A stretch of DNA of 64,000 bases from Escherichia coli (GCF_013122565.1 NZ_CP053258.1), one strand, 5' to 3'; shown: positions 23,695 through 45,030, counted from the first letter of the stretch. A program made the numbers and translations. Notes: a model not told the origin generated them from the letters alone.

Positions 23695-23784
23695 TTTTCG
23701 AGTTCTCCCCATTTTTGCTAAATTCACAATAATGATACCGCATTATTCCATTTTGCAAACTTAAAAGTTCTCCATTGCGAAGAA

Positions 23785-28870: not shown

Positions 28871-28924
28871 TTTTCTGTCCTGTAAATTGGGTTCTGGCGC
28901 GGAATCCCGCGCTGCTCAGATACA

Positions 28925-29440
28925 TCAAAGGCCGAGGGCGTTGCGGTGCGCTTCCATCAGGTCCACGCCGTCCACAATTTCCACCATGTTGATAAGGTCC
29001 ACTTCATAGAGCACCTCACCATTGATAGTCAGCTTCGCGTAGCTGTTGGTACTGGTCACTTTGGTGGTGTTGCTTTCGCCCGTCTTCCACTCGCCGGAAT
29101 CCACTTCTTTGTGACGTCCACGCACCACAAGCTCCACGGCCTGCACTTCTCCGGTATCGTCACGCTGGATAGAGCCGGTAAAGCGCAACTGGATGCCATC
29201 CACCGTGGCTTTGCCCATCTGCTTAAACAGCAGCAGTTCAGTACCACCAATGGAAAATTCTGTGTCCAGCGCACTGTCATCAAGCCCCAGATCCACATCA
29301 ACTGCACCAGGCATTCCGCCGCCGCGATACTTCTCATATTTGCGGGTGAATTTCGGCAGCGTCAGCGACTCTACGATCCCCTGCCAGTTGTTCCCGTCGT
29401 TAAACAGGTTCAGATGTTTTAATTTGCGTGGTAAAGCCAT
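28925..29440 (-). CDS. FII: tail tube protein FII
   Basis: 171-aa ORF at P2 FII position. Confidence 0.85.
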   Translation of the reverse strand: MALPRKLKHLNLFNDGNNWQGIVESLTLPKFTRKYEKYRGGGMPGAVDVDLGLDDSALDTEFSIGGTELLLFKQMGKATVDGIQLRFTGSIQRDDTGEVQAVELVVRGRHKEVDSGEWKTGESNTTKVTSTNSYAKLTINGEVLYEVDLINMVEIVDGVDLMEAHRNALGL

Positions 29441-29449
29441 GTTATCCCC

Positions 29450-30622: not shown

Positions 30623-30698
30623 AGTGGCGAACCTCCTGATTGGATTAGGCTTCGCCCTATGTTGAAGTGATTGTGCCTGACAAACAGCTAAGCGCAGT

Positions 30699-30716
30699 TG
30701 TGTCGTTATTCACACA
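30699..30716 (-). promoter_or_regulatory. Ogr-type late promoter dyad TGT-N12-ACA upstream of FI operon
   Basis: tgtgtcgttattcacaca about 80 bp upstream of FI start. Confidence 0.5.
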
Positions 30717-30764
30717 AAATAACGGTATTTGTCCGCTTACAGGAAAAATCAAAATAATGCTGAC

Positions 30765-31336
30765 TCAGGGCGATTCATTGTTCTCATTCGCCAGAAATTT
30801 TCTATAAATGGTAGAAACGCCCACATCAAAAATCAGTGCAATACGCTGTCTTGATTCTCCGGCCTCGAGTAAACGTCCAATCTGTGCCCACTGTTCGGTA
30901 GTCAACTTAGGACGGCGTCCACCTACTCTGCCTTTAGCACGAGCTGCAGCCAGCCCTTCCCTGGTACGTTCAACTATCAGTTCGCGTTCCATTTCAGCCA
31001 GGGCACCCATGACATGAAAAAAGAAACGGCCCATTGGGGTACTGGTATCAATACTGTCAGTCAGACTTCTGAAATTCACGCCGCGCTGGCGCAACTCTTC
31101 TATCAGAGTAACAAGATGCGCATACTGCGCCCCAACCTGTCCAGCTTCCAGACAACCAGTGTGTCACCTGCCGATAGTGTCCTGAGCAGCTTTTTCAGCC
31201 CTGGTCTGTCGGACTTGGTGCCACTGATTTTATCCTCAAAAATCCGCTCACATCCCGCGCAGTTCAGTGCATTACGTTGCAAATCGGTGTTCTGGTCATT
31301 TGTTGACACGCGTACATAGCCAATAAGCATGATCAT
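30765..31336 (-). pseudogene. Hin/Gin/Pin-family serine DNA invertase, disrupted by frameshift
   Basis: N-terminal 77-aa ORF (MIMLIGYVRVSTNDQ.. catalytic Ser) ends at in-frame TGA; C-terminal 109 aa continue in another frame; about 1-nt indel near 31117. Confidence 0.7.
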
Positions 31337-31387
31337 CCCTCTGAATAAAAACCGGAGATGATGCCAGTTAGCCGTAATCTCTGCATT

Positions 31388-31412
31388 TTCATAAACGTTG
31401 GTTTGGGAGAAG
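31388..31412. repeat. invertase crossover site (gix/cix-like), right copy
   Basis: ttcataaacgttggtttgggagaag; 15-bp perfect inverted repeat of the site at 33216..33240. Confidence 0.65.
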
Positions 31413-31756
31413 CGGCGAAAAGGGATGTGGGCACAGGAGATAATCAGATACCGGATATGGGAGCATTCGCTTCTGGTTCGGGATGGTTCAGGCTACCAGG
31501 TGGATATATTGTTCAGTTTGGCACTTTTTCAGGAAACACGACCCGCTTTATCAGTGGACACTTCCCTATACCATTCCCTAATCAGCCGATGGTTTCAGTC
31601 AGTGTTATGTCTGATGCCGTTCAGTCAGACCCGTCGATTCCTGCCCCGCAGGTTTTGTCTGTAAATTTTGAACATATCAGTAATTCAGCGTGGCGTGTGG
31701 CAACCAGTGATATCTCACAGCAATACAGATTCAGTTATATTTCGATAGGACGGTAG
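31413..31756 (+). CDS. alternative tail-fibre C-terminal variable segment (silent in this orientation)
   Basis: Plus-strand frame shares ..GLGE.. junction with H at the crossover site; no independent start. Confidence 0.5.
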
Positions 31757-31758
31757 AA

Positions 31759-32199
31759 ATGCAGAAATATATTTTCAGTGCCGATAAAAATGCGTTTTTC
31801 CCTGTGGAGCTTAAAATCGCTTATCAGGAATCCGGCGAATGGCCCGATGATGGAATCGAAATTGACGACACTGTTGCCGCCGAATTTATGAAGGAAGCAC
31901 CAGAAGGAAAATACAGAGGTGTCATCGACGGAATGCCTGCATGGATTGATATTCCACCGCCAACTCATGAGGAACAAATTGCCGCAGCCGAATTGGAAAA
32001 GCAGCAATTGATTAATCAGGTCAACGAATACATAAACAGTAAGCAATGGCCTGGTAAAGCGGCGATTGGTCGCCTGAAAGGTGAGGAACTGGCGCAATAT
32101 AATTTGTGGCTGGATTATCTGGACACACTGGAACTGGTCGATACTTCCGGTGCGCCAGATATTGAATGGCCTACGCCTCCGGCAGTTCAGGCCAGATGA
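31759..32199 (+). CDS. tail fibre assembly protein (alternative, Tfa')
   Basis: 146-aa ORF with conserved Tfa C-terminal pattern (..WPTPP..). Confidence 0.7.
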   Translation: MQKYIFSADKNAFFPVELKIAYQESGEWPDDGIEIDDTVAAEFMKEAPEGKYRGVIDGMPAWIDIPPPTHEEQIAAAELEKQQLINQVNEYINSKQWPGKAAIGRLKGEELAQYNLWLDYLDTLELVDTSGAPDIEWPTPPAVQAR

Positions 32200-32764
32200 C
32201 ATCCGGCGCAGTGCTGGTATCTGTTACCGTCACCGCGTCAATATAATCCAGCACGGCGTTAAGTCGGGTTGTTTCTGCCTGCGTCAGCTTCCGCCCGGCC
32301 TGTAATTTCAGTTGAATCAGACTGATGGAAGCCATTGCAGCATCGATCAGCGACTGGCGCTGTGCTTCTGCCGCGTCTACTGCGGCACTATGCTGTGCCT
32401 CAGTATCTGTCACCCATTTCTCACCATCCCATTTATCGTATGGCGTTAACGGTGAAAGCGTGACATAACCGTCTTTGATGGCACCGATATAATCCACTGT
32501 AACAGCTGCGCCATTTTCTGTTGAGTAAACAGTCTCATTGCGATGGTCTTCTTCATGGCTCCATCCCTTACCCGTAAATACTGCCACTCTTCCCGGAATG
32601 TATTCGCCCGGGTCAATACCAGTGGAACAGGCGGGCATACTTACGCCAGTATTAATATATTCATCAGACCAGCCAGTATATTCATACGTAACTGCCTCAT
32701 AATAAAAACAACGCATATTACCAGGTACTGTAGCCAGCCCATTTTCATCAAAAACAGGTTTCAT
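32171..32764 (-). CDS. G: tail fibre assembly protein G
   Basis: 197-aa ORF directly downstream of H; Tfa-like C-terminus (..VIWPELPEA). Confidence 0.75.
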   Translation of the reverse strand: MKPVFDENGLATVPGNMRCFYYEAVTYEYTGWSDEYINTGVSMPACSTGIDPGEYIPGRVAVFTGKGWSHEEDHRNETVYSTENGAAVTVDYIGAIKDGYVTLSPLTPYDKWDGEKWVTDTEAQHSAAVDAAEAQRQSLIDAAMASISLIQLKLQAGRKLTQAETTRLNAVLDYIDAVTVTDTSTAPDVIWPELPEA

Positions 32765-34278
32765 TATGCAGCCCTCACAATATAATTAAAGGCGATGTTA
32801 CGTGGACGGTTTTCATTAGCTGTTGGCACGACACGAGAGGCGTCGAATCCAAGGTCATCGGTTTTGCCTATAGCAGTTGTGTTATTCGCCATTGTCGCTG
32901 ATCGTGTTCCTGCATCGTAAAAAGCCCCTCTGATTGCATCAAAAGACATGCCGATCCCGCCATCTGCGAATCCCTCAATATTTCTTATTGCATCCCCCTG
33001 TGAAGATAATAATTGTCGCCCGGCATCCACTCCACGTCCGTCATCCCAGCCACGAATAAATTCACCGCGTAAATCAGGCAATTTATTTGTCGGATAAACC
33101 TTTGCCAGTTCCGGGTATTCTTCAGCAGAAAAAGCCGCACCATTGCATTTTAGCCAGCCTGTTGGCGGAGTGGCGGAAGGCCACGGGACAGGCACACCAA
33201 CGGGTAATGCCGAACCTTCTCCCAAACCAAGGTATGCGAGAAGACCAGCCACATCCTTTCCACTCAAATTGGTAAGCGTATTGTCCAGCGGTTGTTTACC
33301 TGCCAGCGCATTAAGCATTGTCGTGGCAAAGTTCGGATCATTCCCCAGTGCCGCCGCCAGTTCGTTCAGTGTATCCAGTGCCGCGGGTGCAGAACCCACC
33401 ATTGCTGCAATCGCTGATTTCACAAAAGCCGTAGTGGCAATCTGTGTATTGTTGACCGACTGCGCCGCCGTGGGGGCTGTTGGCGTTCCGGTGAGTGCCG
33501 GACTCGATAGCGGCGCTTTCAGTGCCAGCGCATTGTTAATGGTGGTACTGAATTTCGGATCATTGTTAATGGCTACAGCTATTTCTTTCAGCGTGTCCAG
33601 CGTGGCTGGCGCACCATTAATAAGAGCCGTCAGTGCCGCCTGAACAAACTCGGTGGTCGCAACCTGCGTGGTGTTATTCCCCGCCGCTGGCGTTGGCGCT
33701 TTGGGTGTCCCGGTAAACGTAGGACTTTCTTTCTGTGCATACTGTGAATGCGGGTCCGGTGCGGCAAGATGTTTTGCCATCTGATCATCTGCGTACACCT
33801 TCAGCTCCAGTACCTTATCATCCACATACTTGCGGGTTGCCAGCACTACGGCAGGGTCGATTTTCAGGGTGATATTGTCCGTGCTGCTGGTAATCAACAC
33901 CATACGCACGGTCTGGGTACGCCCGCTGCCTTCAGCCAGTTGCGGCTTATAACTTTCCGGGCAGTTGCCCACGGCAATCAATGCCCCGGACTCATCAAAC
34001 AGGCCCACTTCACGTATCCACCAACCGCCCTCGTTTTCAGGGATCACCTGTTCAGCAATAATCTGGCTGCTGTTCTGCGGGTCGATATAGAGCATATTCA
34101 GCGCAGCCCGGCGTTTCTCATTTACCAATGCTGTCTGCTTTGCGTCCGGCGTTGGCAATGTTCCACCGCCATCGCCGACCGCCATATGGGTAATTTTTAA
34201 AGGCACACCGAGCGCGGCGGCGCTGGCAAGGTTCGCCGCGCCAATATCCGTCAGCAGGGTATAAAATTTTGTGCTCAT
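32764..34278 (-). CDS. H: tail fibre protein H
   Basis: 504-aa ORF, Ala/Thr-rich repeats; P2 H position. Confidence 0.8.
   Translation of the reverse strand: MSTKFYTLLTDIGAANLASAAALGVPLKITHMAVGDGGGTLPTPDAKQTALVNEKRRAALNMLYIDPQNSSQIIAEQVIPENEGGWWIREVGLFDESGALIAVGNCPESYKPQLAEGSGRTQTVRMVLITSSTDNITLKIDPAVVLATRKYVDDKVLELKVYADDQMAKHLAAPDPHSQYAQKESPTFTGTPKAPTPAAGNNTTQVATTEFVQAALTALINGAPATLDTLKEIAVAINNDPKFSTTINNALALKAPLSSPALTGTPTAPTAAQSVNNTQIATTAFVKSAIAAMVGSAPAALDTLNELAAALGNDPNFATTMLNALAGKQPLDNTLTNLSGKDVAGLLAYLGLGEGSALPVGVPVPWPSATPPTGWLKCNGAAFSAEEYPELAKVYPTNKLPDLRGEFIRGWDDGRGVDAGRQLLSSQGDAIRNIEGFADGGIGMSFDAIRGAFYDAGTRSATMANNTTAIGKTDDLGFDASRVVPTANENRPRNIAFNYIVRAA
33216..33240. repeat. invertase crossover site, left copy inside H
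   Basis: cttctcccaaaccaaggtatgcgag; inverted copy of site at 31388..31412. Confidence 0.65.
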
Positions 34279-34880
34279 GGATTCACTCTCATTGTGTCAA
34301 TAACATGGACCGCCCCACCTTCATGCGCGGTGCCGCCGGAAATAATTGTTTCGTTGATATACGGATAGATCGTGATTTCTTCGCCAAGATAGCTGGCGGC
34401 TCCCACCCAATGCGGGCCGCTGGTCTGCAGGTTGATGGACATGCCGATCATGTGACGGCTACATGGTTTGGCATCGCTTATCAGTCGCTCAAGTTCCAGA
34501 TAGGTATCTTCAGTGATGCCCTGGTCCTGCACGCCGATATCCAGACGAAACGTGCCCGGTGCCTCTCCGGTCTGCCACCACTCAATAATGCGGATCAGAA
34601 AACCGAACGGCTCCACCACCCGCCGCACGGCACTGGTGGTCCCTTTATGCTGATGAATATAAAAAGCATCCTTCACCACCTGGCGCTTGACGCTTTCTGT
34701 CCAGCCCTCGTCCCAGCGATCCACAGAGAACGCCCAGGCGAGATAAGGCAGGAAACTGATCGGACAGGTTGCCGGATTCCACAAGTCACGCAGCGGCACC
34801 TGCAGATCAGAAATCCCGCTACAGGTCTGCGCCAGTCGGCGCTCCAGTGAAGTTGAACCCGGTGGCAGCAGACTATTCAT
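34275..34880 (-). CDS. I: baseplate assembly protein I
   Basis: 201-aa ORF at P2 I position. Confidence 0.8.
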   Translation of the reverse strand: MNSLLPPGSTSLERRLAQTCSGISDLQVPLRDLWNPATCPISFLPYLAWAFSVDRWDEGWTESVKRQVVKDAFYIHQHKGTTSAVRRVVEPFGFLIRIIEWWQTGEAPGTFRLDIGVQDQGITEDTYLELERLISDAKPCSRHMIGMSINLQTSGPHWVGAASYLGEEITIYPYINETIISGGTAHEGGAVHVIDTMRVNP

Positions 34881-35781
34881 CCGTTCCTCCGTTGGTCACG
34901 CTCCACTGCGTACATGATGCCGCCTGCGTTTTGTTCAGAACCACATCCGCCAGCGGAGAAGCCAGTTCCACACGTTGAACACCTTCAACATGCAGCGCGG
35001 CAAAAATAGCACTACGGCGAATATCCCGACCGAGCCGCGTCTGACTGGCGATGTACCTCTGCAGGCTGACTTTTGCCGCTGCCATTACCGGCTCTGCTTC
35101 CGGTCCCGGATAAAGAAAAATGGTGGCTTCCACACGGTACGGGATGATTTCTGCGCTGCGAACCGTCAGACGGTCAGCCACCGGGCGGACGTTCTCACTG
35201 TTCAGGGCTTTCTCCACCACGTCCAGTAAGTCTTTTTCTGCAGTTCCGTCGCCTTCGCGACTCAGGACAGTCAGCACCACCTCTGCAGGTGCCGGACTGG
35301 TTGCACTGGCATCCGCCACCCGACCGTCGGCGCTTCGGGCATGAAATTCATAAGCTGCAGTTGGCCCCGCAACTGAAAGTCCTTCAAAGGCTGCAGGCAC
35401 ACGCAGGCGTAACGCTTCATCACTTTCCATCACAGCCGCAACAGGCGGTACAGCGTCATCATCAGCAGGTGTCACCGTCAGGCGTTTCACGTTGTAGTTG
35501 GCAGCAATTTGGTCAAGGTCTCCGCCCATCGCGTAAGCCACCATCACCGCCTGCGCGGCTTCGTTAATGCGCTGGCGCAGAAGCAATTCACGGTAAGCGT
35601 TCTCCTGCAACAATTTGGTGACGGGTTCAGATTCAAGCTCCAGCGTACGCATCACTGCTTCCTGCTCATCTTTCGGATGAAGCGCCACAAATTCGGCCTT
35701 GCGTTCGGAAAGCAGCGTCTCAAAGTCCGGCACATCCACAATCTGCGGCGCAGGTAACTGCGAAAGGTCAATCACTGCCAT
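34873..35781 (-). CDS. J: baseplate assembly protein J
   Basis: about 302-aa ORF (start at internal Met), P2 J position. Confidence 0.8.
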   Translation of the reverse strand: MAVIDLSQLPAPQIVDVPDFETLLSERKAEFVALHPKDEQEAVMRTLELESEPVTKLLQENAYRELLLRQRINEAAQAVMVAYAMGGDLDQIAANYNVKRLTVTPADDDAVPPVAAVMESDEALRLRVPAAFEGLSVAGPTAAYEFHARSADGRVADASATSPAPAEVVLTVLSREGDGTAEKDLLDVVEKALNSENVRPVADRLTVRSAEIIPYRVEATIFLYPGPEAEPVMAAAKVSLQRYIASQTRLGRDIRRSAIFAALHVEGVQRVELASPLADVVLNKTQAASCTQWSVTNGGTDE

Positions 35782-36127
35782 TCTCTGCTCCTGTTGATAC
35801 GGAAAGGGAAACAGGCACACCGTTATTCCGCCGCCCGGTCAGCTCCACCACCATTGAACCGTCAAAATTGCTGTTGATGGTGATGGAATCCAGCGTCATC
35901 CTTGGCTCCCAGCGACTCAGCGCCACATACACTGCCGACATGACCTGCAGGTGTAATGCCGGATTTTGTGGCTGGTCTATCAGTGCCGACAGCAGGGAAC
36001 CATATTCCCGACGGGCAATGCGGCTACCCTGCGGCGTCAGCAAAATGTCCCGCACCGACTGGCGCAGATGGTCCGTGTCTGTAATAGTTTTTCCGTTGTT
36101 CTGACTCATGCCGATATACAGCGTCAT
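35768..36127 (-). CDS. W: baseplate protein W
   Basis: 119-aa ORF at P2 W position. Confidence 0.8.
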   Translation of the reverse strand: MTLYIGMSQNNGKTITDTDHLRQSVRDILLTPQGSRIARREYGSLLSALIDQPQNPALHLQVMSAVYVALSRWEPRMTLDSITINSNFDGSMVVELTGRRNNGVPVSLSVSTGAENGSD

Positions 36128-36702
36128 ACCGGGCCTCCGGTTGTATCGCCGCCTTTCAGGACGCCAGTATGCTGATGCGCATCAACCACGATCCCGTTAG
36201 AACTCATCGCTCCGCCGCCCTGGGTAACGCCACCATTGATCACAACTTCGCTGTTAATGCGCGTGCGGTCAGCCTCCAGTACAAACTCACTGGTTTTCAG
36301 GGTGATATTGTCAGCGGCCTCAATGACCATGGATTTGATGCCCCTGACATACCAGCGCCCGGTGGCGGGTTCGTATTCAAACCAGCCACCGTCTGGGTAC
36401 TCAACCACGTTGCCGTCCTCAGAGTCTGAAGGTGGTGGAAACTGATTTGAGTAGACAGCAGGCAGGGCAAACGCGGTTTCCAGATTGCCACCCAGGCTGA
36501 ACAGCACAACCTGCTCGCCCACAGACGGTTTCCACCAGGTGCGCGATTTGCCCGCGCGCAGTGTCAGCCAGTTAATCCAGTTGGTTTCGAGGTCGCCCGT
36601 TTTCACCCGACACAGCCAGTTTTCCCGGTCCACTTCGGTGACTACACCTGTGCGAATCAGATTGGTGATAAGGCGCATGATTTCGGTTAGTTGTGCATTC
36701 AT
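36124..36702 (-). CDS. V: baseplate spike protein V
   Basis: 192-aa ORF at P2 V position. Confidence 0.8.
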   Translation of the reverse strand: MNAQLTEIMRLITNLIRTGVVTEVDRENWLCRVKTGDLETNWINWLTLRAGKSRTWWKPSVGEQVVLFSLGGNLETAFALPAVYSNQFPPPSDSEDGNVVEYPDGGWFEYEPATGRWYVRGIKSMVIEAADNITLKTSEFVLEADRTRINSEVVINGGVTQGGGAMSSNGIVVDAHQHTGVLKGGDTTGGPV

Positions 36703-36750
36703 GTCGACGATATTTGCACAAACATATATTGTGGGACATTGAGTCAGAAA

Positions 36751-36768
36751 TGTATGACTTACTACACA
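36751..36768 (-). promoter_or_regulatory. Ogr-type late promoter dyad TGT-N12-ACA upstream of V operon
   Basis: tgtatgacttactacaca about 50 bp upstream of V start. Confidence 0.5.
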
Positions 36769-36795
36769 ATGTTTATCCGCGCAAAGGAGTTACAG

Positions 36796-37701
36796 ATGAC
36801 ACAAATCGGTATCTATGGATATTGCTTCACGAAAGAATTTACTTTTAAAGGAGGGACACTGATACCTCGTTACAAATCCTTTAAGGAACTAAAAGAGAAT
36901 AAATGCGATGGAAGCGAATATGTATTAAGTGGATTTTTCTCTCCCGCACATGCTTCTGAAAACACCGTCACTCAAATAATTTATGATCTTTCAGCTGTTT
37001 TAAGTTTCATTGAACAAAAAAATGTAATCATATCAAACTTCCTAGAGGAACATGAAACACCTGAAAAGTTAGATAATAATTTCCCACTAAAATTGAAGTC
37101 AAAAAGAAAGTCATCACTAGGAATAATTGTTGAAGATTACTTCTCTGAAAAGAGTCGCTCAGCGTTCATTGAGCTTGCGATGGATAAACTTCATAGAAAT
37201 ATTAATTCTCATCAAAACCCTTTTAGAACTGCGTTCTATAAGTCTATATTTTCTTTTAGGGAAAGAATGGACTATGTAGATGTTAAATACTTCCTTAATT
37301 TCTCAGCATTAGAATCCCTGTGCAGATATATCGATAACGAGTCGACATCTAGTTATACACCACAAATAATTACAAAGGTTTTAAAAGATTATGGTTTTAA
37401 TGTATCTAAAGAAGGCAACCCTGTACCACAAAGAAACGTGATTCACTATTGCACGCTTCGAAACTCTCTATTCCACAATGGAAATTATATTGGATACATT
37501 AAGAAAGATGATCCAAGCAGTATCATTAAATTAAGTGATTATTATTCAAATCTAAATTTACTTTTACCTTTAGTATTAATGAAATATATAGGATTCGATG
37601 ATGGATTAATTAACTGGGACTCATGGATAGACTATGAACCATTTCTCGCCCTCAGGCCTAAAAACTTAACTCCATCGAATGGTAAACAATCAATTAGATA
37701 G
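36796..37701 (+). CDS. hypothetical moron protein with Rx4H (HEPN-like) motif
   Basis: 301-aa ORF (MTQIGIYGYCF...), RBS aggag upstream, about 33% GC, opposite strand to flanking tail genes; ..CTLRNSLFHNG.. motif. Confidence 0.6.
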   Translation: MTQIGIYGYCFTKEFTFKGGTLIPRYKSFKELKENKCDGSEYVLSGFFSPAHASENTVTQIIYDLSAVLSFIEQKNVIISNFLEEHETPEKLDNNFPLKLKSKRKSSLGIIVEDYFSEKSRSAFIELAMDKLHRNINSHQNPFRTAFYKSIFSFRERMDYVDVKYFLNFSALESLCRYIDNESTSSYTPQIITKVLKDYGFNVSKEGNPVPQRNVIHYCTLRNSLFHNGNYIGYIKKDDPSSIIKLSDYYSNLNLLLPLVLMKYIGFDDGLINWDSWIDYEPFLALRPKNLTPSNGKQSIR

Positions 37702-38136
37702 CCAGCGCAATAATACATCGTGGGTTAAGGATTCTACGTCATCATTAATACCTAACAAACGACGCTCTGCGTAACGGACCTCCGGTCCTTTGCGACTAAC
37801 GCGATCACGCAGGCCGTAATGGTGAACACGGGCAATACGCTGCACCTTGCCTTCAAACTGTACGCTGGCAGAGTCGGCGCTGGCGGCAGTTTTCAGGTAT
37901 TTTGTGGTGCGCAGCTTTGCAAACATCTGACGTTTGATGCGCCCCTTCTTGCTACGTGCTGTTACCCTGCGCGGTTCATAACTGCTGCCATCTGGATTGC
38001 GCTGCATCCTGATATTCTGCTGCTGTGTCCGGCGCAGTTCCTGCGCCAGCTGGCGCATCATGCGGCTTCTCGTGGCTGGTTCCAGATTCGCCAGCAAGGC
38101 ACTCAGCCAGTCGTCCACCTTCTGCAGTTCAGCCAC
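37690..38136 (-). CDS. S: tail completion protein S
   Basis: 148-aa ORF at P2 S position. Confidence 0.8.
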   Translation of the reverse strand: MAELQKVDDWLSALLANLEPATRSRMMRQLAQELRRTQQQNIRMQRNPDGSSYEPRRVTARSKKGRIKRQMFAKLRTTKYLKTAASADSASVQFEGKVQRIARVHHYGLRDRVSRKGPEVRYAERRLLGINDDVESLTHDVLLRWLSN

Positions 38137-38581
38137 GTTTCACCGTCCACATTTCTTCAGGTGCATCAGGTTCCGCTACAGCTTCAACGCTCGACACACT
38201 GCCGTCAGTGCTGACCAGCACACGCTCCGTCAGTTGCAGGTTCAGGCTGATATCACAGACATCGTTGCGCAGAATATCCACCTCAAAGGTGAATAGCTTT
38301 TCCCGTAACGCCAGGTTATTGATAGCATCGGGCTGGTTATCCCTCAGCCACAGCAAAACCGGGGCCATCAGCAGATTCTGGTCGCCGCTGAAATCCTCAA
38401 TCACCACGTTCAGGGTGTAACGGTACTCCCATGACATGGAGCTGGCCCCCGTGGCAACCAGCGAACCGTTATCCACAAACAGATGCAGTTTGTCCGGGTT
38501 ATTGCGGACATAAGGCACCGCTTTATTGAGGGCGTGGCGCAGGGATTGTGGTTTGTTCACTGTTTCGCTCCTGACACGCAA
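38129..38581 (-). CDS. R: tail completion protein R
   Basis: about 150-aa ORF at P2 R position; start uncertain. Confidence 0.75.
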   Translation of the reverse strand: MRVRSETVNKPQSLRHALNKAVPYVRNNPDKLHLFVDNGSLVATGASSMSWEYRYTLNVVIEDFSGDQNLLMAPVLLWLRDNQPDAINNLALREKLFTFEVDILRNDVCDISLNLQLTERVLVSTDGSVSSVEAVAEPDAPEEMWTVKRG

Positions 38582-38813
38582 TAATCATGTCCACTTTGTC
38601 TGCACAGACCGCCCAGGCGGCCTCCGTTTCATCCAGCAACGCGTTCAGATTACCGTTAGTGCGCGGCGTTGCCTGATCCAGCCGACACGGCGTCACTCGC
38701 GGACAACCACTGACGGTAAGCTGCACCTCCGGTGAGTGTCGGACGTTCCCGCAGCCGGATAATGTCAGCAGGCAAAGGAGTATCAGCCCAGCGGCGTAAA
38801 TCCTCGTTCTCAC
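38523..38813 (-). CDS. lysC: o-spanin lipoprotein (LysC/Rz1-like)
   Basis: 96-aa ORF with lipobox LTLSGC, Pro-rich, overlapping lysB in another frame. Confidence 0.65.
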   Translation of the reverse strand: MRTRIYAAGLILLCLLTLSGCGNVRHSPEVQLTVSGCPRVTPCRLDQATPRTNGNLNALLDETEAAWAVCADKVDMIIACQERNSEQTTIPAPRPQ

Positions 38814-39084
38814 GTTTCAGTTCCTCAATCCGATGTTGTCGTTGTCTCAGCAGTGCACTGGTCTGTTCTGCTTCGGCGTAGAGCCGCGCCTGCTCCCGGT
38901 TGTTGGTTTCAGCCAGAATGGACAGACTGATCAGCTGGCTATTTTTCTTCGTTAGTTCGTGCGCTTTACTTTTCAGCGCCGCGCGCTGCGTTTCGATGGT
39001 ATGGCTGGCGCTGTTAAGCCGCCACGACTGCCAGCCCAGCGCAACGAGTGCCAGCGCCGCCACTACCGCCAGCGCACGTGTCAT
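38656..39084 (-). CDS. lysB: i-spanin (LysB/Rz-like)
   Basis: 142-aa ORF with N-terminal TM and coiled-coil. Confidence 0.75.
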   Translation of the reverse strand: MTRALAVVAALALVALGWQSWRLNSASHTIETQRAALKSKAHELTKKNSQLISLSILAETNNREQARLYAEAEQTSALLRQRQHRIEELKRENEDLRRWADTPLPADIIRLRERPTLTGGAAYRQWLSASDAVSAGSGNAAH

Positions 39085-39596
39085 AGTCCAGCTCCTTTAA
39101 GGCACCAGGCCATCTCCCGCGCACGGCGGTTATCCAGCCCCTGATTAAACACACCTTTTACATACACCCAGCGCGGCAACTGTCGGCACGCATCCGCCCA
39201 GCGCCGCTGATTGAGCAATTTCACCAGCGTGGAACTACAGGCATTGCCCGTCCCCACGTTGAAGGCAAACGACACCGTAGCGTCATACACCTTCTGCGGT
39301 GGCTGTTGCTTCACACACCTTTCCAGCGCCCGCTCCACACGCAGCACGTTGGAGATCAGCCCTTCTGCTGCCTGTCGCTCCGTGATTGTTTTGCCGGGAA
39401 TGACGCCCGATGTATTACCAATGCCGTCGGTCCAGACACCCGCGCTGCACTGATACGGCTGCAGACGACAGCCTTCGTAATCGGCGATCAGTTTCAGTCC
39501 CTCCACGGAGGTGTGAAGCTGCTGAAAACCCGGCAGCGTGGCAGCAATAGCCAGCACAGCCCCGACAAGGCAGCGTTTAACGATTGATGGATTCAT
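39081..39596 (-). CDS. K: endolysin (lysozyme family, N-terminal signal-anchor-release-like segment)
   Basis: 171-aa ORF with hydrophobic N-terminus (CLVGAVLAIAATL) followed by lysozyme-like domain. Confidence 0.8.
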   Translation of the reverse strand: MNPSIVKRCLVGAVLAIAATLPGFQQLHTSVEGLKLIADYEGCRLQPYQCSAGVWTDGIGNTSGVIPGKTITERQAAEGLISNVLRVERALERCVKQQPPQKVYDATVSFAFNVGTGNACSSTLVKLLNQRRWADACRQLPRWVYVKGVFNQGLDNRRAREMAWCLKGAGL

Positions 39597-39792
39597 AGTC
39601 CTCCCGCGAGATCTGCCCGTCGCGCAGAAGCTGGTAGGCTTTGTGTTTGTAGTACCAGTTGATAGCCAGCATCAGCACACCGATCATCAGGCCGCCCAGC
39701 GTTGAGGCATCCTTGATGGACAAATCACCCAGCCAGGCCAGCACAACGGCGATGCAATACGTGATAAAGGCGCTGATTCGCTCAAGCGTCAT
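39577..39792 (-). CDS. holin (two-TM, pinholin-like)
   Basis: 71-aa ORF with two hydrophobic helices and charged C-terminus, directly upstream of endolysin. Confidence 0.7.
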   Translation of the reverse strand: MTLERISAFITYCIAVVLAWLGDLSIKDASTLGGLMIGVLMLAINWYYKHKAYQLLRDGQISREDYESINR

Positions 39793-39795
39793 AAT

Positions 39796-39999
39796 TCAGT
39801 CCCATAGCTGGACGGTCTGCACGGTGGTGGTGGTCGGAATGTCCGGCAGCTCCACCTGCAGCCCGTGAGGTAAAAAGGGGCCAAATTCGGCAAGCCCCGG
39901 ATTTGCCTTCAGTACCTGCTCCGTGACACCCTGCGTGCGCCCGTAATGACGCCAGCAAAGCGCGTCCACCGTGTCATACTGATGCGCACGCACTTTCAT
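39796..39999 (-). CDS. X: tail protein X
   Basis: 67-aa ORF at P2 X position. Confidence 0.8.
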   Translation of the reverse strand: MKVRAHQYDTVDALCWRHYGRTQGVTEQVLKANPGLAEFGPFLPHGLQVELPDIPTTTTVQTVQLWD

Positions 40000-40526
40000 C
40001 AGATAAGCTCCACTGTGCAGTGCGGCGCATCCTGTACCCGGCAGATGGCCCAGCGGGCGTCACGCCACAAATCACCGCTGGCTTCTGCCAGTTCCTCGCC
40101 CCGCTTCACACCGGATGCCGTGGCGTCATAGTCCTGGTAACGTTCGTTGAGCATGGCGCGAGCCCAGCAGTAAACCGCGTTGAAATAGTGCTGAATTCGC
40201 TCGCTTTTCCCGTCCAGCTGTTCCGCCGGAACCTCTGCCAGCGAGGCATATCCCAGCATCTGCTGGCGTCTGCGAAACTCATACAGCTCTGCGTTGACCT
40301 CCGAAATTGCCGACAGCGCAACCTGCTTTAAACGCGGCTGCGTCACCGTGCCGTCAGTGCGCATCACACTGCGAAACTCCGACAGGTCCACATCAGGCCA
40401 GAACGGCGTATTTCTGATGATTTCCGCCTGTTCCGGTGCCTGTTCTGGCGCAACAAACTTCATGCTGCTTTCTCCTGAAATAGAGGGCGGTGGACGGGGT
40501 TTTGATGTGGCAGTGCCTTTCGCCAC
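39999..40526 (-). CDS. L: head completion protein L
   Basis: 175-aa ORF at P2 L position. Confidence 0.8.
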   Translation of the reverse strand: MAKGTATSKPRPPPSISGESSMKFVAPEQAPEQAEIIRNTPFWPDVDLSEFRSVMRTDGTVTQPRLKQVALSAISEVNAELYEFRRRQQMLGYASLAEVPAEQLDGKSERIQHYFNAVYCWARAMLNERYQDYDATASGVKRGEELAEASGDLWRDARWAICRVQDAPHCTVELI

Positions 40527-40558
40527 CCCGTGCCGCCCGTGCGCGGGGGCACGTTCTG

Positions 40559-41209
40559 TCAGCGGCTGTCATTGCGCAGTCTGCGCTCCAGCTGCTGTTT
40601 GTCTTTTTTCACGCCACAGCGGGGATCGAGCTGTAACGCATGGTTGAGATGATTAAGGGCGGAAGCCGGATTGCTTTCACTCAGGACAGCGCCAATCGCT
40701 TTATGCAGACGCGCCCGTGACTGGTCCGGCATATCCAGACCGTCTGTCAGCTCCAGCGTCTGCAGCAACAGATCGGCATCAAAGCCGGTGGCGGCAAGCA
40801 TTGCGCTCTGCGCGGCGTCTGCCATTTCCTCTGCCAGCACGGTCTGCACGTTGCGGTTACCCAGCGGCATCACCCAGCCATGACGCAGGGCATGACGCCC
40901 GATCTCCAGCGCCCCGGCATAATCTCCGGCATCAATACGCCACAGCATCACGTACATCAGCACGTCATCCTGTTGAGCGCCTCCGGCAGCCAGGACACCC
41001 TCTGCCCAGGCGGCGTACTTCGGCAGCAGCTCCACCTTGATTTCCGCTTTTTTGACCGTGGACTGAACGCCCTTGAGACGGCGGCGGTCTTCCGCCAGTT
41101 GCAGCAGCATCAGGTCATAGCCCGATGCGTGGCGAACACTGCCGCCCTCGCGGGCGGCCTGTTCAGCCTGAACGCGCAGGCGATGCTGCCGTGCGGGACT
41201 CAGGCTCAT
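40559..41209 (-). CDS. M: terminase small (endonuclease) subunit M
   Basis: 216-aa ORF at P2 M position. Confidence 0.8.
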   Translation of the reverse strand: MSLSPARQHRLRVQAEQAAREGGSVRHASGYDLMLLQLAEDRRRLKGVQSTVKKAEIKVELLPKYAAWAEGVLAAGGAQQDDVLMYVMLWRIDAGDYAGALEIGRHALRHGWVMPLGNRNVQTVLAEEMADAAQSAMLAATGFDADLLLQTLELTDGLDMPDQSRARLHKAIGAVLSESNPASALNHLNHALQLDPRCGVKKDKQQLERRLRNDSR

Positions 41210-41212
41210 GGA

Positions 41213-42271
41213 TTACGCTCCGGTTTCGGCTGCGGCGGCGCTGAAATCACCAATCTGGATATTTTCCACCAGTGCGGCGCAGCGGTAGTCCTCAACCACA
41301 TAGGCTTCGTTAACGGATTCAAAGTTTTCAATCCGGTCACGTTTCGGGTTGTCGATAACTGAACGGCGGCGGGTGTCTTCCTGCCAGTAGATGGACAGGT
41401 TATCCAGACGGGTGATCAGCAGCGCATTCGGCGGGAAGAACGGCGCACGCACGGCCTGCAGGCCACCCATGCGTTTCTGACTGATGATCATATCGGCAGC
41501 CAGTTTTTCACTGTTTTCCTGCTCTTTGTTGACCAGCGGGAAATACTTGTCAGACAGCAGTTCACGACCGCAAATCACCACCAGATCGTCATCGTCCTGG
41601 TAGACCACGTCGATAAGCTCATTGACGGCATCCATCACCACGGCGTCCAGGTTGGCATATTCGCCACCTTTCCCGACTTTCACTGCGCCCGGTGTGGTTT
41701 CACCGCCCGTGGTGGTGCTGCCCATGACGTGATCCGGTGCATCCTCACGGATTTTCTGCAGCCAGCCTTTATTCACATCCTGCAGTAGCGGGTTTTCGCT
41801 ACGGTTGGAGGTTTTCGCACGCTTCACGCCGTTAAAGCCGATCATGATGCGGTCCAGTGCCTGACGTTTCACGATGGCGTCACGGATACGCACCTGAAAA
41901 TCCTGAAACTTCGCCCACAGGTCCAGCTTCGCGTAGGTCAGCACCGTGTCAAAGTTGGTCTGCTCGCATTTATATTCCACATCGACCATCAGCGTCGGAT
42001 CGACAGGTTCACGCTCTTTCGCGGTGGTATCAGTGGTTCCGGCAATGGTGCTGCCAACTCCCAGCCCCAGCAGCTGACCGGACTGCTCAGTCACTGGCGT
42101 GACGTTAATCAGCGTCAGGAAAGCGGCGGACTGCTGGATCTGGTCTTCCAGCGTCTGCTGCACAGACGGCTCCACGGTGAATTTGCTGGACAGTTCTTCA
42201 ACTGCCACACCGTTCAGACGCGCCAGCTGCTGCAGGTAAGCGTTAAAAGCAAAGCGGGTATTCTTCTTCAT
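41213..42271 (-). CDS. N: major capsid protein N
   Basis: 352-aa ORF at P2 N position. Confidence 0.85.
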   Translation of the reverse strand: MKKNTRFAFNAYLQQLARLNGVAVEELSSKFTVEPSVQQTLEDQIQQSAAFLTLINVTPVTEQSGQLLGLGVGSTIAGTTDTTAKEREPVDPTLMVDVEYKCEQTNFDTVLTYAKLDLWAKFQDFQVRIRDAIVKRQALDRIMIGFNGVKRAKTSNRSENPLLQDVNKGWLQKIREDAPDHVMGSTTTGGETTPGAVKVGKGGEYANLDAVVMDAVNELIDVVYQDDDDLVVICGRELLSDKYFPLVNKEQENSEKLAADMIISQKRMGGLQAVRAPFFPPNALLITRLDNLSIYWQEDTRRRSVIDNPKRDRIENFESVNEAYVVEDYRCAALVENIQIGDFSAAAAETGA

Positions 42272-42287
42272 CGGGTTTTGTGCTCCA

Positions 42288-43121
42288 TCAGCAATTGGTC
42301 AGAGTGTCAGCGGGGGCGTTACCGCCTGTTGCACGCTGGCGGTAGTCCTGGCGGCTGTCTTCATGACTTAGCTTGTCCACCAGTTCGTTAAAGGCGGTCA
42401 GCTGTGCCTGCAGGGCAGTCTCCAGCTCAGACAGGCGTTCTTCCTGCTCAGACAGGGATTTTTCGGTGCGTGCGCTCAGGTTCTGCTGCTCAGTGGCGAC
42501 CAGCTCCACGGCCTTATGCACATCAGAGAACCGGGCGTCATCGGACTGCTCTTTTTTGGTAAACAGCGCCGTGACGCGGGCAAACAGGGACGGTTTGTCG
42601 TCTTGGATTTCTTCCAGTTCGATCACCGTTTCCTCTGCAGCGGTAAAGAGATTGGCAGGATTCTGCTTGCGGTTTGCCAGCGGGTTATGGGCTGCACTGG
42701 CGCTGAATGTCAGCATTTCCGTACCCAGACTGGCAGGGTCATCAGTGGCAGCCAGGCCGACCAGGTAGGCTTTGCCCGTATCAGCGAACTTCGGGCTGAC
42801 TTCCATAGAGGTGAATAATTTCTGGCCTTTTTTCACCAGTTCCACCAGGGACTCCGTTGGCTCAACGTCGGCATACAGCGCCATCTTGCCTGCCAGCGGA
42901 CCTTCCGTGATTTCTTCAGCAAACAGCGCCGTCACCTTGCCGTAGCGGTTAAAGGTGCTGTCCGGCAGATAAGACTTGATGTGCTCAAGGTTAATCAGCG
43001 CGGTATACACCGCCGGGTTGTAGCTGGCTGCCATCTGTTCCAGCCATTCACGCTGGATTTCGCGTCCGTCGGTGGTGGCACCTTCCACCCCGATGCGAAA
43101 ACGCTTTGCTTTCACTGTCAT
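42288..43121 (-). CDS. O: capsid scaffolding protein O
   Basis: 277-aa ORF, acidic coiled-coil, P2 O position. Confidence 0.8.
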   Translation of the reverse strand: MTVKAKRFRIGVEGATTDGREIQREWLEQMAASYNPAVYTALINLEHIKSYLPDSTFNRYGKVTALFAEEITEGPLAGKMALYADVEPTESLVELVKKGQKLFTSMEVSPKFADTGKAYLVGLAATDDPASLGTEMLTFSASAAHNPLANRKQNPANLFTAAEETVIELEEIQDDKPSLFARVTALFTKKEQSDDARFSDVHKAVELVATEQQNLSARTEKSLSEQEERLSELETALQAQLTAFNELVDKLSHEDSRQDYRQRATGGNAPADTLTNC

Positions 43122-43199
43122 GAGCCGTGCTCCGTTAGAAAAAACTTACTGGAGCCTTATGGTTGCGGTGATGGGGGCAGTGAAACAATGCGCGGTATT

Positions 43200-43217
43200 T
43201 GTACCGACAACCACACA
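43200..43217. promoter_or_regulatory. Ogr-type late promoter dyad TGT-N12-ACA in divergent O/P control region
   Basis: tgtaccgacaaccacaca between O and P starts. Confidence 0.5.
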
Positions 43218-43263
43218 AACCGCAGGCGGGGAAAGCCTTCATTCAAGGCTGTAGGTTTGTGCC

Positions 43264-45030
43264 ATGAACACCACACTGACACCCGCAGATCTCGATCCCC
43301 GTCGGCAGGCCATGCTGCTGTACTTTCAGGGATACCGCGTAGCCCGCATTGCTGAAATGCTGGGCGAGAAAGTTGCAACCGTTCACAGCTGGAAAAAACG
43401 CGACAAGTGGGGTGACTATGGGCCGCTGGATCAGATGCAGCTCACCACCGCCGCACGCTACTGCCAGCTCATCATGAAGGAGCACAAAGAAGGGAAAGAT
43501 TTCAAAGAGATTGACCTGCTGGCGCGCCAGTCTGAGCGCCACGCGCGGATCGGCAAGTTTAACAATGGCGGCAACGAATCCGACTTAAACCCTAACGTCG
43601 CCAACCGCAACAAAGGCCCACGCCGTCAGCCGGAAAAGAATGTTTTCACCGATGAGCAGATTGAGAAGCTGGAAGAAATCTTCCATTCCTCCATGTTCAA
43701 CTACCAGCGCCACTGGTGGGAAGCCGGAAAAACCAACCGCATCCGCAACCTGCTGAAGTCACGCCAGATCGGCGCGACCTTTTACTTTGCCCGTGAAGCC
43801 CTGATTGACGCCCTGCTGACCGGACGTAACCAGATTTTCCTTTCCGCCAGCAAGGCACAGGCCCACGTCTTTAAGCAGTACATCATCGACTTCGCCAAAG
43901 AAGTGGAGGTGGAGTTGAAAGGCGATCCGATGGTGCTTCCTAACGGGGCCACGCTTTACTTCCTCGGCACCAATGCCCGCACGGCCCAGAGTTATCACGG
44001 CAACCTGTATCTGGATGAATATTTCTGGATACCGAAATTCCAGGAGCTGCGCAAAGTGGCTTCCGGTATGGCTATTCACAAGAAATGGCGACAAACCTAT
44101 TTTTCCACGCCATCCAGCCTGACACACAGTGCTTATCCGTTCTGGTCCGGTGCGCTATTCAACCGTGGGCGCAACAAAGCCGATAAGGTGGACATCGACC
44201 TGTCCCACAGCAATCTGGCCCCCGGCCTGCTGTGCGCAGACGGGCAATACCGCCAGATTGTCACCGTGGAAGATGCAGTGCGCGGCGGATGTAACCTGTT
44301 CGACCTCGATCAGTTACGCATGGAGTACAGCCCGGACGAATACCAGAACCTGCTGATGTGCGAGTTTGTGGACGATCTCGCGTCTGTGTTCCCACTCAGC
44401 GAGCTGCAGGCGTGCATGGTGGACAGCTGGGAAGTCTGGACCGACTTTCATGCACTGGCACTGCGCCCATTTGGCTGGCGCGAAGTGTGGATCGGTTATG
44501 ACCCGGCGAAAGGTACGCAGAACGGCGACAGTGCCGGATGCGTGGTGGTGGCACCGCCAGCCGTGCCGGGCGGCAAGTTCCGCATTCTTGAGCGTTACCA
44601 GTGGCGCGGGATGGACTTTCGCGCCCAGGCTGACGCCATCAAAAAACTGACCGAACAGTACAACGTGACCTATATCGGCATCGACTCAACCGGCGTTGGT
44701 CACGGGGTTTATGAGAACGTGAAAGCGTTCTTTCCTGCCGTCCGGGAGTTTGTCTACAACCCCAACGTTAAAAACGCCCTGGTACTCAAGGCCTACGACA
44801 TTATCAGCCACCGCCGTCTGGAGTTTGACGCCGGGCACACCGACATTGCGCAGTCATTCATGGCAATCCGTCGCGCCACCACCGCCAGTGGCAACCGCCC
44901 GACCTATGAAGCCAGCCGCAGCGAAGAAGCCAGCCACGCCGATCTGGCCTGGGCAACGATGCACGCACTGTTTAACGAACCGCTGCAGGGCGAATCCGCC
45001 AATACCAGCAATATTGTGGAGATTTTTTGA
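43264..45030 (+). CDS. P: terminase large (ATPase) subunit P
   Basis: 588-aa ORF at P2 P position. Confidence 0.85.
   Translation: MNTTLTPADLDPRRQAMLLYFQGYRVARIAEMLGEKVATVHSWKKRDKWGDYGPLDQMQLTTAARYCQLIMKEHKEGKDFKEIDLLARQSERHARIGKFNNGGNESDLNPNVANRNKGPRRQPEKNVFTDEQIEKLEEIFHSSMFNYQRHWWEAGKTNRIRNLLKSRQIGATFYFAREALIDALLTGRNQIFLSASKAQAHVFKQYIIDFAKEVEVELKGDPMVLPNGATLYFLGTNARTAQSYHGNLYLDEYFWIPKFQELRKVASGMAIHKKWRQTYFSTPSSLTHSAYPFWSGALFNRGRNKADKVDIDLSHSNLAPGLLCADGQYRQIVTVEDAVRGGCNLFDLDQLRMEYSPDEYQNLLMCEFVDDLASVFPLSELQACMVDSWEVWTDFHALALRPFGWREVWIGYDPAKGTQNGDSAGCVVVAPPAVPGGKFRILERYQWRGMDFRAQADAIKKLTEQYNVTYIGIDSTGVGHGVYENVKAFFPAVREFVYNPNVKNALVLKAYDIISHRRLEFDAGHTDIAQSFMAIRRATTASGNRPTYEASRSEEASHADLAWATMHALFNEPLQGESANTSNIVEIF

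Follow-up and report, generated by a model that had tools for sequence, protein, structure and literature searches.

Three TGT-N12-ACA dyads as probable activator sites of four late promoters in a P2/186-like prophage of Escherichia coli

Three exact TGT-N12-ACA dyads in the late half of a P2/186-like prophage are very probably where an activator binds at four late promoters: pF, pV and the divergently oriented pO and pP (probability about 0.9). They lie in a 64,000-nucleotide stretch of Escherichia coli DNA (GCF_013122565.1, NZ_CP053258.1), hereafter the window. A sequence-only reading had placed the three 18-mers upstream of FI, V and the O/P divergent region; all three are present at the positions it gave, and Pfam confirms the identities of Ogr, FI, V, O and P. 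Its count of three sites stands, with the refinement that four promoters are served, the O/P site being common to both directions, as the P2 and 186 records annotate. Because this site is shared by divergent promoters, three dyads would drive four operons:

30699-30716: pF dyad, TGTGTCGTTATTCACACA, exact TGT-N12-ACA
23785..30622, minus strand: F operon (FI sheath, FII tube, E/E', T, U, D), from the ORF map and the phage 500465-1 annotation
36751-36768: pV dyad, TGTATGACTTACTACACA, exact TGT-N12-ACA
32171..36702, minus strand: V operon (V, W, J, I, tail fibre H, tail-fibre assembly), from the ORF map and the phage 500465-1 annotation
43200-43217: shared pO/pP dyad, TGTACCGACAACCACACA, exact TGT-N12-ACA
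37690..43121, minus strand: O operon (O, N, M, L, X, holin, endolysin, lysB, R, S), from the ORF map and the phage 500465-1 annotation
43264..46064, plus strand: P operon (terminase large subunit P, portal Q), from the Pfam terminase domains and the portal

For the genes of the F, V and O operons we used the annotation of phage 500465-1, which is 95% identical. Pfam assigns a tail sheath to 29450-30622, Phage_base_V to 36124-36702, and Phage_GPO and Phage_tail_S to genes of the O operon; the window gpP is collinear with P2 gpP from residue 3. A retron RT-Toprim gene adjoins Q. Read along transcription (minus strand), the pF dyad is T-TGTGTGAATAACGACACA-A and the pV dyad T-TGTGTAGTAAGTCATACA-T.

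An activator gene lies in the same prophage, with coordinates as previously proposed for a zinc-finger Ogr, on the minus strand:

23476..23694, minus strand: ogr homologue, 72 aa; Pfam PF04606 Ogr_Delta, E=5e-22; phrog_603, transcriptional regulator
23732..23759, minus strand: predicted sigma-70-like ogr promoter, TTTGCA-16-TATCAT, from a consensus scan

The protein has the same length as P2 Ogr and 186 B, to which it is 51% and 54% identical, respectively, and Cys4/7/30/35 are invariant in the alignment of the three (CX2CX22CX4C). Its predicted promoter falls after the gene D stop and before the ogr ATG, the position of the annotated P2 ogr promoter and of 186 pB. Among contigs whose Ogr is 100% identical to that of the window, there are seven different pF and six different pV dyads, and these 13 dyads have in common only (T)TGT-N12-ACA.

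The dyads could also be real late operators whose natural actor is mainly a Delta-type activator of a P4-like satellite, or some other factor. In P2/P4 biology, the same P2 late promoters are switched on by Delta, the activator of P4 and of phiR73. However, the prophage has an intact ogr with its own predicted promoter at the canonical position downstream of D, and at least 79 contigs carry both the identical Ogr and these dyads. We consider a mainly foreign actor improbable, and its action would complement activation by Ogr rather than exclude it.

Absence of the dyads from relatives had been named beforehand as a result that would speak against activation by the prophage's own Ogr. Instead, the exact dyad is found in 69 of 69 distinct sequences upstream of FI and in 37 of 37 upstream of V. 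In these relatives the dyads are confined to a slot of 4–8 bp; the pV dyad, for example, begins 63-66 nt before the V ATG in 37/37. The flanking sequences fall into 9 (FI) and 15 (V) families that are below 60% identity to each other. In the alignments, the columns of T-TGT and of ACA do not vary, whereas conservation is 30% or lower in many of the columns around them. Per flank family, an exact dyad would turn up by chance in an 8-position slot with a probability of ∼0.002. For pO/pP, close relatives are uninformative because the whole intergenic region is nearly invariant among them. Farther afield, the exact O/P dyad occurs at the same place in three other genera (Gegevirus, Yersinia YenM_201.16 and Salmonella SEN4), and takes the form TGT-N12-CCA in the group of P2, 186, PSP3, EtG and Vimunumvirus.

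The same alignments bear on whether the dyads, pF above all, are instead sites for CRP (cAMP receptor protein), which would put the late genes under catabolite rather than Ogr control. The CRP core consensus is TGTGA-N6-TCACA, and the plus strand of pF at 30699-30714, TGTGT-CGTTAT-TCACA, matches it at 9/10 positions. The resemblance is limited to the window variant, since relatives read TGTGCCATTTTCCATACA, TGTGCCATTGACGGTACA and so on at pF; they keep TGT-N12-ACA and not the inner GA/TC bases at N6 spacing, and nothing like a CRP inner half is present in the pV or pO/pP dyad. The CRP core is thus not what is conserved, and we judge control by CRP very improbable.

Equally hard to sustain is the idea that the dyads are RNA or DNA hairpins, acting as terminators of the upstream operons or as recombination sites at the boundaries of cargo insertions. 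A terminator scan did return weak stem-loops that overlap or abut pF (30737..30721) and pO/pP (43206..43193), and a variable cargo slot borders the pV dyad. The conserved part, though, comprises only the outer TGT/ACA and a few adjacent bases. Within the dyad, the 12 nt are free to vary and for the most part lack self-complementarity, contrary to what a conserved stem would show. Moreover, 52 of 80 relatives have no cargo at that slot (68 bp, empty) and still retain the dyad.

The pattern itself carries little information, with six specified bases, and it is not enriched in the 64 kb: we found 15 matches against 15.9 +/- 3.8 in shuffled sequence. The evidence therefore lies in position and conservation. 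The three intergenic regions preceding the late operons (30623-30764, 36703-36795 and 43122-43263) total 377 bp, in which the shuffle rate predicts ∼0.09 dyads; each region has one, at the P2 distance, and this placement is non-random. The 12 other matches lie in places without a plausible promoter role, and one of them (43258-43275), directly beside the real O/P site, looks like chance. We also scored the window with a weight matrix built from 61 sites of relatives, with the window's own sites left out. The pF (23.9) and pO/pP (20.9) dyads were the top two matches of the whole window, compared with a maximum of 14.2 in shuffled windows. The pV score (14.4) is only at the shuffle maximum, and support for this site is positional and comparative. 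Even so, the notion that the three dyads are functionless chance matches is effectively refuted by the conservation of the exact dyad amid unrelated flank families.

Scans of 30400-31400, 36500-37900 and 43000-43400 found no sigma-70 consensus promoter in the FI, V, O or P directions. Hexamers resembling a -10 element, with A2 and T6, are present at -12..-7 of a point 55.5-56.5 bp from each dyad centre:

30659..30664, minus strand: predicted pF -10 hexamer CAACAT, start predicted near 30652
36710..36715, minus strand: predicted pV -10-like hexamer AAATAT, start predicted no more than 2 nt from the V ATG (36702)
43159..43164, minus strand: predicted pO -10 hexamer AACCAT, start predicted near 43152
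43252..43257, plus strand: predicted pP -10 hexamer TAGGTT, at -12..-7 of the A of the P ATG (43264)

Judged from sequence, the late core promoters appear poor, with no -35 consensus and a weak -10, hence their likely dependence on an activator. The putative pF start would lie 55.5 bp from the dyad centre. In relatives, the block AGAACATAGG is the sole other high-information block downstream of the pF dyad, and it aligns with GAAAAT of P2 pF, upstream of the annotated P2 start 17626-8. For pO the predicted position is 56.5 bp from the centre; P2 has GAAACT at the matching place relative to its annotated start 3127.

From the geometry of pV, V mRNA is predicted to be leaderless. A Shine-Dalgarno sequence is absent upstream of V in 35 of the 37 sequences, and present upstream of FI in 69/69 and of O in 25/25. 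The mRNA for P (terminase) is likewise predicted to be leaderless. In P2, the point 55.5 bp from the O/P dyad centre is the annotated pP start 3016; at -12..-7 of this point the hexamer is TAGCCT in P2, 186, PSP3 and Vimunumvirus. The window, Gegevirus, YenM, SEN4 and Carl1 have TAGGTT, TATGTT or TAGCCT at that place, and in them the point coincides with the P ATG, with no Shine-Dalgarno sequence. Overall, a Shine-Dalgarno sequence for P is absent from the window and five other lineages and present in phages of the long type, in which P lies farther from the dyad.

These observations fit the following scheme, modelled on P2 and 186. During lytic growth, ogr would be expressed and its zinc-finger product would bind each T-TGT-N12-ACA dyad, centred ∼55 bp upstream of a start where the -10-like hexamer is weak and the -35 is missing. 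Bound Ogr would recruit host sigma-70 RNA polymerase by way of the alpha subunit's C-terminal domain. This would switch on four operons: F (sheath to D), V (baseplate, tail fibre), O (head, lysis, tail completion) and P (terminase, portal), the O/P site acting both ways. TGT-N12-ACA is the consensus of the P2 promoters PP, PO, PV and PF, which are Ogr-dependent (PMC3931495), and passages of PMC11434276 and PMC1874639 that cite King 1992 and Wood 1997 describe a genetic link between Ogr and the alpha-CTD (rpoA) in P2, where late transcription depends on both and is sensitive to rpoA109. Two points weigh against the scheme: Ogr of the window shares only 51-54% identity with the characterised activators, and the characterised P2 and 186 sites have CCA and not ACA in the promoter-proximal half, so that we assume the same recognition for this prophage. 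Predicted binding by the prophage's own Ogr, as the sequence-only reading had it, is nonetheless supported by gene identities, distances and conservation.

As previously noted, the pV dyad shares its short intergenic region with an oppositely oriented cargo gene, whose ORF starts 27 nt from the dyad edge:

36796..37701, plus strand: divergent AT-rich cargo gene ('moron', 301 aa) in the S-V (orf30) slot

The start is preceded by GGAG 6 nt upstream, and the match to phrog_4373 (unknown function) begins at residue 1. GC content is 30-33%, compared with 55-56% in the flanks. We found no PADLOC, NCBIfam or significant Pfam match for this gene, and it is not homologous to P2 orf30. By geometry it is outside the late regulon, and a cargo gene beside pV is not unusual, mirroring as it does P2 orf30 in a known variable slot. 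A doubtful extension is that the pV dyad would do double duty, with Ogr binding late in lytic growth activating pV and at once occluding the lysogenic-conversion promoter of the cargo gene. With 27 nt between them, the dyad is too near to act on the cargo gene from -55, so that on this reading the promoter of that gene would have to overlap the Ogr site. Other cargo families, at least eight of them, have gaps of 13-44 nt. If true, one 18-bp site would be a lysogeny/lysis toggle travelling with every S-V cargo cassette.

Late-promoter sites of this kind are routinely annotated by similarity in genome papers (PMC3931495; PMC5694545). Here, we could compare the dyads with records that annotate both activator sites and transcription starts, those of P2 (NC_001895) and of 186 (NC_001317, B-protein sites). 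Distances from dyad centre to ATG match those of the annotated sites, in agreement with the earlier expectation for late operons. For FI the distance is 85.5 bp in the window and 82.5 bp in P2; for V, 57.5 bp versus 57 (P2) and 56.5 bp (186); and for O, 87.5 bp versus 95.5 (P2) and 87.5 bp (186). For P, the window is of a short type (55.5 bp), compared with 78.5 bp in both P2 and 186.

The short geometry is also seen in four other genera and phiCTX. Across other Peduoviridae (Gegevirus, YenM_201.16, SEN4, Burkholderia Carl1, Pseudomonas phiCTX, Stenotrophomonas Smp131 and Ralstonia phiRSY1), O and P are separated by a region with a TGT...ACA that is exact or nearly so, and as in the window the distance from its centre to the P ATG is short, 55-57 bp. 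Spacing differs from the window's N12 in Carl1 and phiCTX (N11 or N13), and phiRSY1 has TGTTGT-N13-ACAACA. This site family reaches its limit with Vibrio phage K139 and the Vibrio and Aeromonas phages related to it. Their divergent O/P late promoters flank a central palindrome of a different kind, TTCGGATAT...ATATCCGAA, and TGT-N12-ACA was not found in them.

Phage 186 has late promoters pJ, p32 and pV/p12 and the activator B. Its record has one B site upstream of J (the FI homologue) and another that the O and P homologues, lying on either side, have in common; a T-TGT half-site precedes the V homologue, its centre 56.5 bp from the ATG. Unlike those of the window, the 186 sites are TGT-N12-CCA (CGG at p32), and the P homologue has a leader.

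P2 shares with the window the same four operons, gene order and three intergenic locations, and a single site for the divergent O and P promoters. Its partial dyads are centred ∼55-58 bp from annotated starts; at pV the centre (∼10251) is 57 bp from the start 10308, which is the V ATG. In both, a divergent AT-rich gene (orf30, non-essential, in P2) abuts the pV site, and a 72-aa C4 zinc-finger activator with its own promoter (predicted in the window) lies downstream of D. There are differences. P2 sites are imperfect (TGT-N12-CCA at pF and pO/pP, N11 at pV), so that the window's exact sites are closer to consensus than those of the type phages P2 and 186. The P2 P gene has a 23-nt leader with GAGG, whereas the window lacks a Shine-Dalgarno sequence there. 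Between the tail-fibre genes and FI, the window has an invertase and an invertible tail-fibre segment where P2 has Z/fun; the DNA invertase gene is frameshifted. Identities to P2 are 51% for Ogr, ∼44% for gpO and 63% for gpP. Across these differences, the dyads of the prophage are ordinary ones, arranged as in the textbook phage P2.

All three 18-mers of the form TGT-N12-ACA that the sequence-only reading took for Ogr-type late-promoter dyads are present as exact matches where it had placed them:

30699-30716, pF dyad, upstream of FI, TGTGTCGTTATTCACACA
36751-36768, pV dyad, upstream of V, TGTATGACTTACTACACA
43200-43217, pO/pP dyad, between the divergent genes O and P, TGTACCGACAACCACACA

The motif is not enriched across the whole window (15 matches in 64 kb, versus 15.9 ± 3.8 in dinucleotide-preserving shuffles). 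A match in sequence is thus no proof by itself; what carries the argument is where the sites lie and how well they are conserved. The sites were scored with a weight matrix derived from 61 sites in relatives and none from the window. pF (23.9) and pO/pP (20.9) are the top two scores of the entire window, compared to a shuffled-window maximum of 14.2; pV, at 14.4, is only at the level of that maximum. The extended consensus from relatives is T-TGT-R-Y-C-A-N4-T-G-R-Y-ACA-A. No separate fourth dyad for pP was found, even with one mismatch allowed, and one site is common to O and P; three dyads thus account for four late promoters.

Two further matches were judged to be chance. An exact dyad at 43258-43275 (TGTGCCATGAACACCACA; matrix span 43255-43278, score 15.7) overlaps the P ATG, 58 bp from the shared dyad. 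It has no equivalent in Gegevirus or YenM, is lost in one close relative and lacks promoter geometry, and is probably fortuitous, an autoregulatory role being less likely. The other, a near-dyad with good flanks (23963-23986, minus strand, score 15.5), falls within gene D, in its 3' part, with the ogr ATG ∼280 bp further downstream. It reads TGC-N12-ACA, with TGC rather than TGT, and it too lacks promoter geometry.

A P2/186-like (Peduoviridae) prophage has its late half at window positions 23.4–46 kb, in inverted order compared with the P2 map. This late region is 95–96% identical to Klebsiella phages Kp48xx and KP12 and to Escherichia phage 500465-1 (genus Wadgaonvirus). Pfam confirmed the portal gene Q and the following genes:

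23476-23694, minus, ogr, the activator gene (Ogr_Delta zinc finger, E=5e-22)
29450-30622, minus, FI tail sheath
36124-36702, minus, gpV
42288-43121, minus, gpO
43264-45030, plus, gpP terminase

The zinc-finger Ogr gene is thus where the sequence-only reading had it. Its 72-aa product has the same length as P2 Ogr and 186 B, to which it is 51% and 54% identical, respectively, and the four cysteines of CX2CX22CX4C are invariant among the three proteins. A sigma-70-like promoter for ogr is predicted between D and ogr, in the same position as in P2 and 186. On the other side of ogr, a gene for an Asp-Al_Ex/TrkA_C transporter (21555-23240, plus) is presumably a host gene, which would put the ogr-proximal end of the prophage between ∼23240 and 23476.

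To assess conservation, we collected 80 loci for each of the FI, V and O homologues from a viral contig collection, which gave 69 distinct upstream sequences for FI and 37 for V. The sequence-only reading had named absence of the dyads from relatives as one outcome that would tell against it. The exact dyad occurs in 69/69 FI-upstream sequences, starting 87–94 nt before the FI ATG, and in 37/37 V-upstream sequences, starting 63–66 nt before the V ATG. In neither alignment do the T-TGT and ACA columns vary, while many adjacent columns are ≤30% conserved. Once the triplets are masked, the flanks plus spacers sort into 9 families for FI and 15 for V at less than 60% identity, and the chance of an exact dyad in the 8-position slot is ∼0.002 per family.

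Other explanations of the sites were weighed. Action of a satellite Delta protein on the same sites is compatible with the main explanation and is not an alternative to it. pF can be read on the plus strand as a CRP site (TGTGT-N6-TCACA), but this fails: in relatives it is the N12 triplets that persist, not the inner bases of the CRP site. The dyad symmetry might instead reflect a hairpin or terminator, which fails because the 12-nt interior is freely variable. Chance matching of the three dyads is excluded by their conservation.

Returning to Ogr-type late promoters, we found Ogr 100% identical to that of the window in at least 79 IMG/VR viral contigs. Among those contigs that also occur in the FI and V sets, the identical Ogr is paired with 7 pF and 6 pV dyad variants, which have only (T)TGT-N12-ACA in common. 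Read as a natural mutagenesis, 13 dyads with one Ogr, this comparison of sequences points to the outer triplets as the Ogr recognition determinants.

For pO/pP, close relatives are uninformative, since the entire intergenic region is nearly invariant, and we turned instead to 17 records of more distant Peduoviridae. The exact dyad is in the same place as in the window in Gegevirus, Yersinia YenM_201.16 and Salmonella SEN4. At that place, TGT-N12-CCA is found in P2, 186, PSP3, EtG and Vimunumvirus, and the spacer is N11 or N13 in Burkholderia Carl1 and Pseudomonas phiCTX. The Vibrio and Aeromonas phages and K139 depart from this pattern, with another central O-P palindrome (AATTCGGATAT...ATATCCGAATT) and no TGT-N12-ACA. 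This palindrome marks the limit of the site family, and implies that activator specificity has switched within the Peduoviridae.

We then compared the geometry of the sites with the GenBank feature tables of P2 and 186. The P2 record (NC_001895) gives the following:

pF: activator site 17555-17583, start 17626-8, FI ATG 17652
pV: activator site 10239-10266, start 10308, which is the V ATG
pO/pP: one site, 3057-3087, for both; starts 3127 (pO) and 3016 (pP)

B-protein sites are annotated likewise in the 186 record, and there too the divergent pair is served by one common site.

Distance from dyad centre to start codon (bp)
FI: window 85.5; P2 82.5; 186 no value
V: window 57.5; P2 57; 186 56.5
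O: window 87.5; P2 95.5; 186 87.5
P: window 55.5; P2 78.5; 186 78.5

The dyads had been described as lying at the expected distance upstream of late operons, and these distances agree with the annotated P2 and 186 sites. The published late-promoter consensus is TGT-N12-ACA (quoted in PMC3931495). The elements of P2 and 186 depart from it (TGT-N12-CCA at pF/pJ and the shared site; TGT-N11-ACA at P2 pV), and the window sites are closer to the consensus than the sites of the two type phages themselves.

A sigma-70 consensus promoter was found in none of the four directions (FI, V, O, P), as expected of activator-dependent promoters. On the downstream side of the pF dyad, the only other block kept in relatives is AGAACATAGG, which aligns with the P2 pF -10 element GAAAAT and predicts, from sequence, a transcription start near 30652. 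At the other promoters, A2/T6 hexamers occupy positions compatible with 55.5–56.5 bp from the dyad centre:

43164-43159, pO, AACCAT
36715-36710, pV, AAATAT
43252-43257, pP, TAGGTT

The starts predicted for these three promoters are near 43152 (pO, minus strand), at 36702-36704 (pV, minus strand) and at 43264 (pP, plus strand).

By homology with P2 and 186, Ogr would bind each dyad at about -55 and, once bound, would recruit sigma-70 RNA polymerase via contact with its alpha C-terminal domain. Mutations in ogr suppress rpoA109 L290H, and a discrete alpha-CTD contact site has been described (cited in PMC11434276 and PMC1874639). Where P2 Ogr has Tyr42, the window's Ogr carries His, and its sensitivity to rpoA109 may therefore not be the same. 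Ogr binding, the start sites and alpha-CTD contact we infer by analogy; the remainder is read directly from the DNA.

The ATG of P at 43264 is real, since from residue 3 onwards gpP aligns collinearly with its P2 counterpart. Its distance to the centre of the shared dyad is exactly 55.5 bp, which places it on the predicted start. Counting 55.5 bp from the centre in P2 leads to the annotated start 3016. P2, 186, PSP3 and Vimunumvirus have the hexamer TAGCCT at −12 to −7 of the point at that distance, and in P2 and 186 a leader of 23 nt containing GAGG follows. In the window, Gegevirus, YenM_201.16, SEN4 and Burkholderia Carl1, it is the P ATG itself that is preceded at −12 to −7 by TAGGTT, TATGTT or TAGCCT, without a Shine-Dalgarno sequence; phiCTX is similar, at 57 bp. 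This arrangement predicts a leaderless P mRNA in the window lineage and at least four other genera; we found no paper describing leaderless P. In all 15 unrelated upstream families, the V ATG keeps a distance of 54.5–57.5 bp to the centre of the dyad. A Shine-Dalgarno sequence is absent for V in 35/37 upstream sequences, whereas it is present for FI (69/69) and O (25/25). These observations are consistent with a leaderless V mRNA, and the start in the P2 record (10308) is the V ATG. That several genera have the P ATG right at the predicted start, as P2 has it for V, is of modest use to studies of gene expression in phages and to the annotation of start codons in P2-like prophages.

Next to the pV dyad, and divergent from V, begins the moron, an AT-rich cargo gene (36796-37701, plus, 301 aa; 30–33% GC, versus 55–56% in the flanks). 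It belongs to phrog_4373, a PHROG with a function-less label, and has no PADLOC defence-system, NCBIfam or credible Pfam match. Three in-frame ATGs are available, at 36754 (inside the pV dyad), 36769 and 36796; only the last has a Shine-Dalgarno sequence and matches the PHROG N-terminus, in support of the start originally proposed. Comparison shows no homology to P2 orf30, with which the moron has slot and divergent orientation in common; the P2 orf30 ATG is 15 nt from the annotated P2 pV site.

The S-V gap measures 68 bp in 52/80 relatives, where the dyad begins 4 nt past the S stop, and is filled with cargo (553 to >1500 bp) in 28/80. A divergent ORF begins 13–44 nt from the dyad in at least eight cargo families, in a scan that passed over the window's own moron by taking ATG 36754 as its start. 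Variability of the orf30 locus has been published (PMC3091744), and with divergent cargo recurrent there, the arrangement flagged by the sequence-only reading is the standard one. No consensus sigma-70 promoter was found for the moron; a hand-picked TTGAGT-N17-CACAAT (36741-36769, 8/12) is speculative. The dyad is too near the cargo ATGs for activation from -55, so cargo promoters must overlap the Ogr site, and Ogr may occlude them. The moron and S overlap at their 3' ends by 12 bp (37690-37701), leaving no room for an O-operon terminator. This exact junction is found in 7/5426 complete E. coli genomes.

Two other loci were noted. Beside pF, a DNA invertase gene (Resolvase + HTH_7; 30765-31336, minus) adjoins an invertible tail-fibre segment (31358-32764). 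A 1-bp deletion (GTATGC-GCATC versus GTATGCGGCATC in phage 500465-1) breaks it into two ORFs, which makes it either a pseudogene or the product of a sequencing error. Directly after Q, 46109-47869 (minus) encodes a 586-aa reverse transcriptase matching the PADLOC RT-Toprim type I-C retron models (E=6e-213), within the known Q-A (old/tin) hotspot for defence genes in P2-like phages.

Collectively, placement, P2/186 geometry, conservation and the Ogr gene support the Ogr-type late-promoter interpretation, as judged from sequence and analogy. Little of this is new. Database records of this prophage lineage carry no regulatory features, and the value lies in a reliable regulatory annotation (four late promoters, predicted starts and the activator) and in comparative data that sharpen the Ogr recognition motif. 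What the window holds is the P2/186 late-promoter system in an ordinary and well-conserved form, within an enterobacterial prophage lineage that is common.
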